Shown: positions 58,296 through 58,801 of the stretch, in pieces
Position numbering within the stretch: position 1 is the first letter of the stretch
How the letters are laid out: each line of letters starts with the position of its first letter
Assembly (NCBI RefSeq): GCF_058153355.1
Contig: NZ_CM177019.1
DNA length: 64,000 nucleotides
Strand: one strand, 5' to 3'
Notes under the pieces: model-generated
What the model was told of the DNA's origin: nothing
Seen by the model: only the letters and a program-made list of their open reading frames with translations
Databases searched by the model: none
Translations under genes and position numbers: made by a program

Positions 58296-58526
58296 TTATA
58301 ACCTTGGTTTATAAGGACTGTTACGAACGTCTAAGCGGTAATGCGCTCTTGCTGTTTCGTCTTTAACTTGCTGAATTTCCGGACGCAGGGCGTCAATATC
58401 CTGTTGCAGTTGATTAATTTTGTTATTCAATGCCTGAATATCATGTTCCAGGTGTTCAATTTTGGCATTGCTGGTACAGCCAACAAGACACAGCGCCAGC
58501 GGAATGGATAAGATAAGTTTGTTCAT
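58296..58526 (-). CDS. Lpp-like small lipoprotein (paralog of the adjacent yqhH)
   Basis: 76 aa from [17 protein letters not shown] (lipobox LVGC), then Lpp-like coiled-coil heptads (...[24 protein letters not shown]...). Confidence 0.65.
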   Translation of the reverse strand: [76 protein letters not shown]

Positions 58527-58543
58527 TATGAATTCCAGAACCG

Positions 58544-58801
58544 TCATTCCGCATACATACGCAAGCAGCGCAGGCAATCAAAATAGTCCTGAGCATCAAG
58601 ACGCGTATTGGCTCTGTTAGCTTCGGATTTTGCCGCATAGATTTGCGGGCGTAATGCTTTCATATCCTGCTCAAGCCGGGCGATTTTGGCATTTAATGTT
58701 TGCACATTGCTCGCCAGCTGATTGACCTTTTGCTCATTGACGCAGCCGCTGAGCAAGCAGGTTGCCAGAACAACAGCCCCCACGGTGAAAATCGTTTTCA
58801 T
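58544..58801 (-). CDS. yqhH: Lpp-paralog lipoprotein
   Basis: 85 aa; [20 protein letters not shown] lipobox; Lpp-like heptads ([27 protein letters not shown]). Confidence 0.85.

Follow-up and report, generated by a model that had tools for sequence, protein, structure and literature searches.

A probable Lpp-family lipoprotein gene beside yqhH in an Escherichia genome assigned to cryptic clade I

We analysed a stretch of 64,000 nucleotides from contig NZ_CM177019.1 (NCBI RefSeq assembly GCF_058153355.1), called the window below, and in it a pair of small genes next to ygiQ. The first gene is yqhH (58544-58801, minus strand), which encodes a protein of 85 aa. The second gene, here called ORF2 (open reading frame 2; 58296-58526, minus strand), is an intact frame of 76 codons. 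Judged from its sequence, ORF2 is very probably a real gene for a lipoprotein of the Lpp family. It is also likely to be an old paralog, orthologous to a 76-aa lipoprotein of Salmonella enterica. More tentatively, and by analogy with studied Lpp paralogs, its product might act as an outer-membrane-anchored coiled coil that would lack a cross-link to peptidoglycan and might assemble together with Lpp or YqhH. For this reading as a whole, in which confidence is blended over identity, history and mode of action, we estimate a probability of about 0.6. A preliminary description had reported a tandem pair of minus-strand genes past the 3' end of ygiQ, and its coordinates, motifs and quoted peptides all agree with the open reading frames and their translations. 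ORF2 is an already annotated, uncharacterised member of the family; RefSeq lists it as WP_001037462.1, 'LPP leucine zipper domain-containing protein'.

The two Lpp-like proteins

The first gene had been named yqhH in the preliminary description, and this name holds. On the NCBIfam equivalog model for 'lipoprotein YqhH' (NF007428, cut-off 120), its product reached 197.7 bits, and it is identical to the K-12 protein WP_000848528.1, with eight synonymous and no non-synonymous differences between the genes. YqhH carries the lipobox L17-S18-G19-C20, followed by Val-Asn, and ends in ...RMYAE; its tail contains two Cys and lacks a terminal Lys. It reached 47.9 bits on Pfam LPP (PF04728; gathering score 29.1) and 83.1 bits on NCBIfam NF011925 'major outer membrane lipoprotein', which is below the cut-off of 108 of that model.

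ORF2 encodes a 76-aa precursor with the lipobox L-V-G-C17, followed by Thr-Ser, and the mature protein is 60 aa long, with a mass of 7.05 kDa before any lipid is added. It scored 42.1 bits on Pfam LPP, above the gathering score, and is thus a member of this family by that test. The pattern [LVI][ASTVI][GAS]C without Asp at position +2 can be read from the sequence of both ORF2 and YqhH. The earlier statement that both proteins combine a lipobox (LSGC and LVGC) with Lpp-like heptads is borne out. On NF011925, ORF2 scored 69.0 bits, again below the cut-off of 108. It is not a YqhH, because it scored only 53.4 bits on NF007428 (cut-off 120) and lacks the Cys residues of the YqhH tail.

The coiled-coil part of ORF2 (58323-58469, minus strand; precursor residues ~20-68) closely follows that of Lpp. 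From the lipid-Cys to Tyr72 (mature Cys1 to Tyr56), ORF2 aligned without gaps to the Lpp chains 9rld, 9rlc and 1eq7 in the PDB (E 3.6e-13), which come from crystal and cryo-EM structures. The residues at the a and d positions are I-L-I-L-I-L-I-L-I-V-T-A-L in ORF2 versus I-L-V-L-V-L-V-M-V-A-A-A-L in Lpp, in the same register, and ORF2 has a continuous, hydrophobic 3-4 heptad core in the register of the Lpp trimer structure. An AlphaFold2 model of the monomer, built from a 14-sequence alignment, predicted one long helix over residues 7-68, with a predicted local distance difference test (pLDDT) score of 89-97 over residues 21-60. These features are shared with Lpp (PDB 1EQ7), as is the lipobox. 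ORF2 differs from Lpp in its sequence (45% identity), in Pro49 (mature Pro33, in the motif 'ALRPE'), which stands at the position of Lpp Ser33, and in Val38 and Thr42 of the mature protein, which replace part of the alanine zipper. It also lies at another locus and, in contrast to lpp with its very high expression, has a low G+C content.

ORF2 also differs from Lpp at the C-terminus. Its 10-residue tail (58299-58328, minus strand), which ends in SPYKPRL, replaces the ...ATKYRK end of Lpp; in the AlphaFold2 model it is non-helical and has a low pLDDT (63). Since ORF2 ends in ...YKPRL and YqhH in ...RMYAE, neither protein has the C-terminal Lys (...Y-R-K-COOH) through which LdtA/B/C join Braun lipoprotein covalently to meso-DAP; the preliminary description had noted that this Lys is missing. 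The tail motif RNSP[YF]xPRL is common to ORF2 and its Salmonella ortholog.

YqhH (UniProt P65298) resembles ORF2 in being a small outer-membrane-type lipoprotein with a Pfam LPP domain, the same heptad register, Pro33 ('ALRP') and no terminal Lys. The two genes lie in the same interval between dkgA and ygiQ and probably in the same transcription unit. YqhH differs in its 16-residue tail, which carries a CxxC-like pair (DCLRC), whereas the mature part of ORF2 has no Cys after the lipid-Cys. This tail pair of YqhH has been tied to redox chemistry (bioRxiv 10.1101/2025.11.13.688167).

The reading frame is maintained by selection. The ratio of non-synonymous to synonymous substitution rates (dN/dS) of ORF2 was 0.23 against the Salmonella ortholog, at a synonymous divergence (dS) of 0.72 that is estimated from only 48 synonymous sites, and 0.13 against the counterpart in Escherichia sp. 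94.0001. These values show purifying selection on a real protein. Furthermore, the length, the lipobox and the tail of the ORF2 family are kept across dozens of variants on more than 1,000 contigs. Among the PHROGs families, ORF2 matched one of unknown function with 79 positions (E 2e-11) and gave weak matches to Rz-like coiled coils. An origin from a phage, a spanin or an exclusion lipoprotein was rejected, as a prophage context is absent.

Relationships, distribution and history

Pairwise identity was 44% between ORF2 and YqhH (64 aa, E 8e-18), 45% between ORF2 and Lpp, and 51% between YqhH and Lpp. The match between ORF2 and YqhH spans the whole coiled coil, so that the resemblance of the pair goes beyond the signal peptide. 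In a DNA comparison of ORF2 with yqhH, nothing significant was found; the best cross-match covered 41 nt at 73% (E 4.2). When proteins were searched with ORF2 by a word index, just two matches came back, both near-identical, and an exhaustive phmmer search was needed to reach distant relatives. This search, together with contig look-ups, revealed the ortholog in S. enterica on more than 1,000 contigs. It is a 76-aa protein (variant P0091; 4340-4570 of comparison locus L012) that is annotated as 'LPP leucine zipper domain-containing protein'. It shares with ORF2 the length, the position of the lipobox, 74% identity in the mature core and the tail. Its gene likewise faces the 3' end of ygiQ convergently, with TAA and a similar CCCGGCAGC...GCTGCCGGG hairpin behind it. 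It differs in its upstream neighbour, which is an 83-aa PPRL-type paralog instead of yqhH, in its upstream spacer, which measures 87 nt and contains a better Shine-Dalgarno element (AAGGAAG), and in keeping the alanine-zipper residues Ala38 and Ala42.

In a neighbour-joining tree built on 50 columns of the mature core, ORF2 was joined to the 76-aa protein of Salmonella (86% bootstrap) and YqhH to a separate YqhH-like protein of Salmonella (79% bootstrap). We call the ORF2 family type C, a class that is defined in this analysis and has no curated model: a 76-aa precursor ending in RNSP[YF]xPRL, encoded convergently to the 3' end of ygiQ and followed by a GC-rich hairpin. Both the window gene and the Salmonella gene, compared at loci L011 and L012, fit this definition. 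Because ORF2 has its own ortholog in the same slot in Salmonella, the duplication that separated it from YqhH would predate the divergence of Escherichia and Salmonella.

ORF2 DNA was detected by sensitive blastn in 18 of 5,426 complete E. coli genomes and was absent from the other 5,408, whereas yqhH is present in 5,415 of the 5,426. The preliminary description had raised the question of whether both genes are annotated in K-12. This is the case for yqhH but not for ORF2, the DNA of which is missing from K-12 and not merely unannotated; the stop codons of yqhH and ygiQ are 42 bp apart there. The 18 genomes with ORF2 are also the top 18 when genomes are ranked by the identity of the yqhG-yqhC flank to that of the window (98.3-99.3%; 97.6% for the 19th). 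Two of them, EC42405 and 2013C-4282, are listed as strains of Escherichia cryptic clade I (Okuno et al. 2023, PMC10100065). The window is assigned to clade I because its 18 nearest genomes include these two published strains. Its identity to K-12 is ~96% over the whole comparable length. Protein-cluster records show that Escherichia sp. isolates also carry ORF2; in one of them, 94.0001, the order yqhG-yqhH-ORF2-ygiQ is that of the window, with 97.5% identity. Among sequenced 'E. coli', ORF2 is a clade I trait.

In the alleles that lack ORF2 (K-12, Escherichia sp. E1V33 and E. albertii), yqhH ends with ...GAA TGA TAA AAA... and the hairpin follows. The missing stretch is exactly 245 nt, that is, the spacer and 228 nt of coding sequence, and the TAA directly after the yqhH TGA aligns with the stop codon of ORF2. 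The shared junction suggests a single deletion allele that has either been spread by recombination or is of great age and polymorphic; otherwise, clade I would have regained ORF2. We also compared the window with 94.0001. The flanks are 98-100% identical and ygiQ is 93-96% identical, with the break at the hairpin between ORF2 and ygiQ (ygiQ side 56038-58277, compared with locus L007). The ygiQ allele of 94.0001 is ~94% identical to every allele sampled. Recombination at the ORF2/ygiQ boundary is thus real, and ygiQ is a recombination mosaic in Escherichia.

How, then, did ORF2 come to stand beside yqhH in clade I? The preliminary description regarded the pair as a local duplication, and a tandem pair of Lpp-family genes it certainly is. 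A recent copying of yqhH within the lineage of the window, followed by divergence, is a different matter. The two genes are adjacent on the same strand and share the 'ALRP' motif with Pro33, which Lpp lacks. However, they show no significant DNA similarity, ORF2 is equally far from YqhH and from Lpp, and each protein has a separate counterpart in Salmonella, that of ORF2 in the same position. Pro33 is moreover common to a clade of Lpp-like proteins without terminal Lys across Enterobacteriaceae. Nor does the Salmonella gene look like a recent transfer from clade I, which is opposed by 79% nucleotide identity and the dS of 0.72. A recent duplication is therefore most improbable, and the Salmonella ortholog effectively refutes it. 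There is more to be said for a loss of ORF2 in an Escherichia ancestor and its later regain by clade I, through homologous recombination from another enterobacterial lineage. The identical TGA/TAA junction in K-12, E1V33 and the outgroup E. albertii, the low G+C content of ORF2 and the mosaic ygiQ with its breakpoint at the adjoining hairpin are all in line with it, and the dS to Salmonella is lower for ORF2 (0.72) than for ygiQ (1.19). Against this, the latter comparison depends on the 48 synonymous sites of ORF2, the flanks of ORF2 are free of mobile-element features, and both flanks, yqhH and the hairpin, are collinear with the alleles lacking ORF2. The distribution of ORF2 is exactly clade I (18 of 18), the 97.5%-related 94.0001 also has it, and no donor closer than Salmonella (79% nucleotide identity) was found. 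We consider a regain possible but rather unlikely. In any case, this question bears on the history of ORF2 and not on its identity.

Several observations weigh against the reading of ORF2 as a maintained, old Lpp-family gene with an envelope function. Simple vertical retention is hard to square with an identical junction in three lineages bracketing clade I. The ATG of ORF2 is preceded by only a weak Shine-Dalgarno-like element, GGAA at -10 to -7. The gene has 41.6% G+C and 40% G+C at third codon positions (GC3), versus 49-55% G+C in its neighbours, which fits low expression or silencing by H-NS. Among the variants, P0002 has an in-frame deletion of 14 residues (two heptads) and in P0012 the lipid-Cys is changed to Gly; both are rare. 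In the literature searched, no paper dealt with ORF2 or with its Salmonella ortholog, and no data on expression, lipidation, localisation or oligomerisation of ORF2 came up for any organism. Mixing of ORF2 with Lpp is also far from assured, because ORF2 is only 45% identical to Lpp (~82% for LppB, discussed below), has a bulkier core (Ile, Val38 and Thr42) and carries a Pro in the middle of the helix. Some of these points would suit a decaying relic, intact in appearance but unexpressed and on its way to the loss seen in E. coli sensu stricto: the gene is gone from most of the genus, its Shine-Dalgarno element is weak and its GC3 low, variants without the lipid-Cys or with internal deletions occur, and the rare Salmonella allele P0032 is frameshifted or truncated to 64 aa. 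However, P0002, P0012 and P0032 were each found on one to three contigs, and the copies in clade I and Salmonella are overwhelmingly intact (hundreds to more than 1,000 contigs each). The dN/dS values of 0.13-0.23 also speak for a functional gene, as does the preservation of frame, length, lipobox and tail at a dS of 0.72. A relic is thus improbable, and we prefer the reading of ORF2 as an old paralog kept by selection.

The locus and the dkgA-ygiQ interval

The pair is flanked by ygiQ (radical S-adenosylmethionine family; 56038-58257, plus strand), which faces it convergently, and by yqhG (58852-59778, minus strand), which encodes a protein of the YbjP/YqhG family with a signal peptide and a Pfam DUF3828 domain. 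Across Escherichia, Salmonella, Klebsiella and other Enterobacteriaceae, ygiQ serves as the conserved anchor of the locus. The stop codons of ORF2 and ygiQ are separated by 38 nt, which are occupied by a GC-rich hairpin (58268-58291). Its folding energy is -19.5 kcal/mol (z -6.0) for the minus strand, and for the plus strand it is -17.2 kcal/mol (z -4.5). This hairpin is a probable shared transcription end. A consensus terminator scan did not flag it, because the T-run is absent. In the YgiQ protein of the window, the CX3CX2C motif of the radical-SAM cluster reads CFDGCSFC instead of CFGGCSFC. The Gly is found at this site in K-12, Z0117EC0005, 94.0001, E1V33, E. albertii, Salmonella and Klebsiella, so that the Gly-to-Asp change is either a strain-specific substitution or a sequencing error.

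At the junction of yqhH and ORF2 (58527-58547, minus strand), the yqhH stop TGA (58546-58544) is followed by a 17-nt spacer, which contains the GGAA element, and by the ATG of ORF2 (58526). A second possible ATG in the same frame (58547-58545), chosen in many automated calls, shares bases with the yqhH stop (ATGA); a precursor starting there would be 83 aa long. The longest frame starts at a TTG at 58577 (93 aa). We favour the 76-aa start, which is also the choice of the Prokaryotic Genome Annotation Pipeline (PGAP), because the seven residues preceding MNK differ in Salmonella and the sequence from MNK onward is conserved. A consensus promoter scan showed no sigma-70-like site on the gene strand between yqhH and ORF2. 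In K-12, 'yqhGH' has been listed as one target locus, and BglJ-RcsB activates its promoter, which lies upstream of yqhG (PMC3950696). yqhG and yqhH are thus probably one transcription unit with yqhG upstream. We infer that this unit extends to ORF2 as its third gene; the short distance from the yqhH stop and the lack of a promoter-like site in between support it. An attenuator inside the 3' end of yqhH (hairpin 58586-58602) was rejected, as its z of -1.7 is not significant. An Rfam scan of 57500-60500 gave nothing relevant, and two antisense frames on the plus strand (58341-58511 and 58462-58620) are unsupported and were treated as chance.

Besides yqhH and type C, the dkgA-ygiQ interval contains a further type of Lpp paralog without terminal Lys, and the set of the three varies among lineages. 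Type B proteins are 82-83 aa long and have a Trp/Pro-rich tail ending in ...HPPRW, ...NPPRY or ...HPPRL. In Escherichia sp. E1V33 and E. albertii, the type B gene is flanked by yqhG and yqhH. In Salmonella it is the immediate upstream neighbour of the ORF2 ortholog, and in Klebsiella sp. it adjoins ygiQ; cluster records place it also in E. ruysiae and E. whittamii. The type B genes of E1V33, E. albertii, Salmonella and Klebsiella sp. are at 3959-4207 of locus L003, 3228-3476 of L004, 4001-4252 of L012 and ~4061-4306 of L013. The Salmonella protein has two Cys in its tail. The window has no type B gene, with ~5 nt where the slot is otherwise ~297 nt. Type B resembles ORF2 in belonging to the same clade without terminal Lys, in the LQQDI[ND]ALR core, in the Pro-Arg-hydrophobic end and in its place in the interval (48-56% identity). 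It differs in its longer Trp/Pro-rich tail (RWPDGIWAHPPRW) and in lying upstream of yqhH in Escherichia, not downstream.

The complement of the interval is therefore YqhH alone in K-12, YqhH and ORF2 in clade I, type B and YqhH in E. albertii, E. ruysiae and E. whittamii, and all three types in Salmonella. Further Enterobacteriaceae have one Lpp-like gene without terminal Lys there. The motif LQQDI[ND]ALRPE, or a close variant, is common to the proteins of the interval, where Lpp has LSNDVNAMRSD. A profile scan of genome contigs found only three loci, since it relied on one 9-residue pattern; the type B genes of E1V33 and E. albertii were among them, and the Salmonella ortholog was missed. A locus in a metagenome-assembled genome of Coriobacteriaceae (31% identity) was dismissed as an unrelated coiled coil. 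Just upstream of type B in E. albertii and Salmonella, we observed a Cys-rich frame of 227-270 aa with a zinc-ribbon-like N-terminus (CPIC...VCxVCFN; 2132-3200 of L004, 3049-3861 of L012 and 2713-3525 of L008), and in E. albertii an extra 137-aa frame lies beside it. These frames may be linked to the lipoprotein array.

Elsewhere, the window departs from K-12 in three places. A 7.3-kb segment between parE and ygiN (38867-46172) is missing from K-12. It contains a gene for a TonB-dependent receptor (38935-41076, minus strand), a FecCD-type ATP-binding cassette (ABC) operon for iron/siderophore uptake (41450-45243, plus strand) and an RpiR/SIS regulator gene (45240-46127, plus strand). Conversely, the window lacks an equivalent of two K-12 segments, the fimbrial cluster yqiGHI/ygiL with its IS2 element, and mqsR-mqsA together with the 5' part of ygiS; the corresponding sites are at ~27229-27304 and ~50876-51004. 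This clade I genome thus appears to lack the MqsRA toxin-antitoxin pair.

Possible mode of action and wider meaning

The lipobox with Thr at position +2 predicts that ORF2 would be triacylated and brought to the outer membrane by the Lol machinery, and the heptads in Lpp register predict a parallel coiled-coil rod. Because a terminal Lys is absent, attachment by an L,D-transpeptidase is not expected. The terminal Lys is reported to be absolutely essential for the attachment of Lpp to peptidoglycan, and the K79R mutation abolishes peptidoglycan binding of LppB (PMC12681736). ORF2 has one Lys in its tail, K73, at -4 from the end, and could act as a true Lpp-like tether if this residue were used: Y72-K73 aligns with Tyr56-Arg57 of Lpp, one residue before Lpp Lys58. 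However, K73 is not the C-terminal residue, as Pro-Arg-Leu comes after it, the Salmonella ortholog has Ser in its place, and the cited requirement for a terminal Lys speaks against such a role, which makes it highly improbable. The SP[YF]xPRL tail is kept in both genera, and a Pro-Arg-hydrophobic end is also present in type B, which suggests that the tail might make a specific contact.

The best experimental model for accessory Lpp paralogs is LppB of Salmonella, an alternative murein lipoprotein for which work from 2025 showed that such paralogs can tune the link to peptidoglycan. LppB forms heterotrimers with Lpp and lowers the cross-linking of Lpp to peptidoglycan, and similar behaviour has been suggested for YqhH (bioRxiv 10.1101/2025.11.13.688167). 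Like LppB (and Lpp2), ORF2 is an accessory family member in tandem with another and has a divergent C-terminus. It lacks the ~82% identity to Lpp, the terminal Lys, the weak cross-linking of its own, the Cys78 disulfides and the lpp locus of LppB. By this analogy, ORF2 could be a modulator that may mix with Lpp or YqhH. Because ORF2 diverges from Lpp far more than LppB does, trimers of ORF2 alone, or of ORF2 with YqhH, are no less likely than its mixing with Lpp. Lipidation, sorting, trimerisation, the absence of cross-linking, the modulator role and expression are all predictions here. A survey of Lpp variants in Salmonella would have excluded the ORF2 family, because it kept only sequences that had a terminal Lys and were 80% identical or more (PMC12681736).

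A broader and quite unlikely idea, which we offer as speculation, is that the dkgA-ygiQ interval is a lineage-variable toolkit of non-anchoring Lpp subunits: YqhH with its CxxC tail, type B with PPR[WYL] and type C with SPYxPRL. Under envelope-stress control by BglJ-RcsB and H-NS at the yqhG promoter, these subunits would co-assemble or compete with Lpp and so set the tightness and spacing of the outer membrane's ties to peptidoglycan, and the Pro-Arg-hydrophobic end would dock a periplasmic partner. If this were true, clade I and Salmonella would have a regulatory layer of envelope mechanics that is partly lost in K-12.

ORF2 may also be of use in typing. Cryptic clade I is an emerging source of human pathogens of the Shiga toxin-producing (STEC) and enterotoxigenic (ETEC) E. 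coli types. As ORF2 occurs in 18 of 18 clade I-like genomes and in none of the 5,408 others, it is a candidate short marker of clade I among complete genomes. A pangenome association for clade I markers found one specific gene only, a 1,368-bp gene with a pipB2 domain (PMC10100065); ORF2 could be a second, very short one.

In summary, Lpp paralogs form a larger and more variable set than K-12, with its Lpp and YqhH, would suggest. A third conserved type without terminal Lys is present in Salmonella and cryptic clade I, and a fourth in E. albertii, E. ruysiae and E. whittamii. Absent any functional role, ORF2 remains an ordinary accessory paralog. If such paralogs do affect tethering or the release of vesicles, they would matter for how robust the envelope is, for its permeability to antibiotics and for immune recognition through TLR2 ligands.

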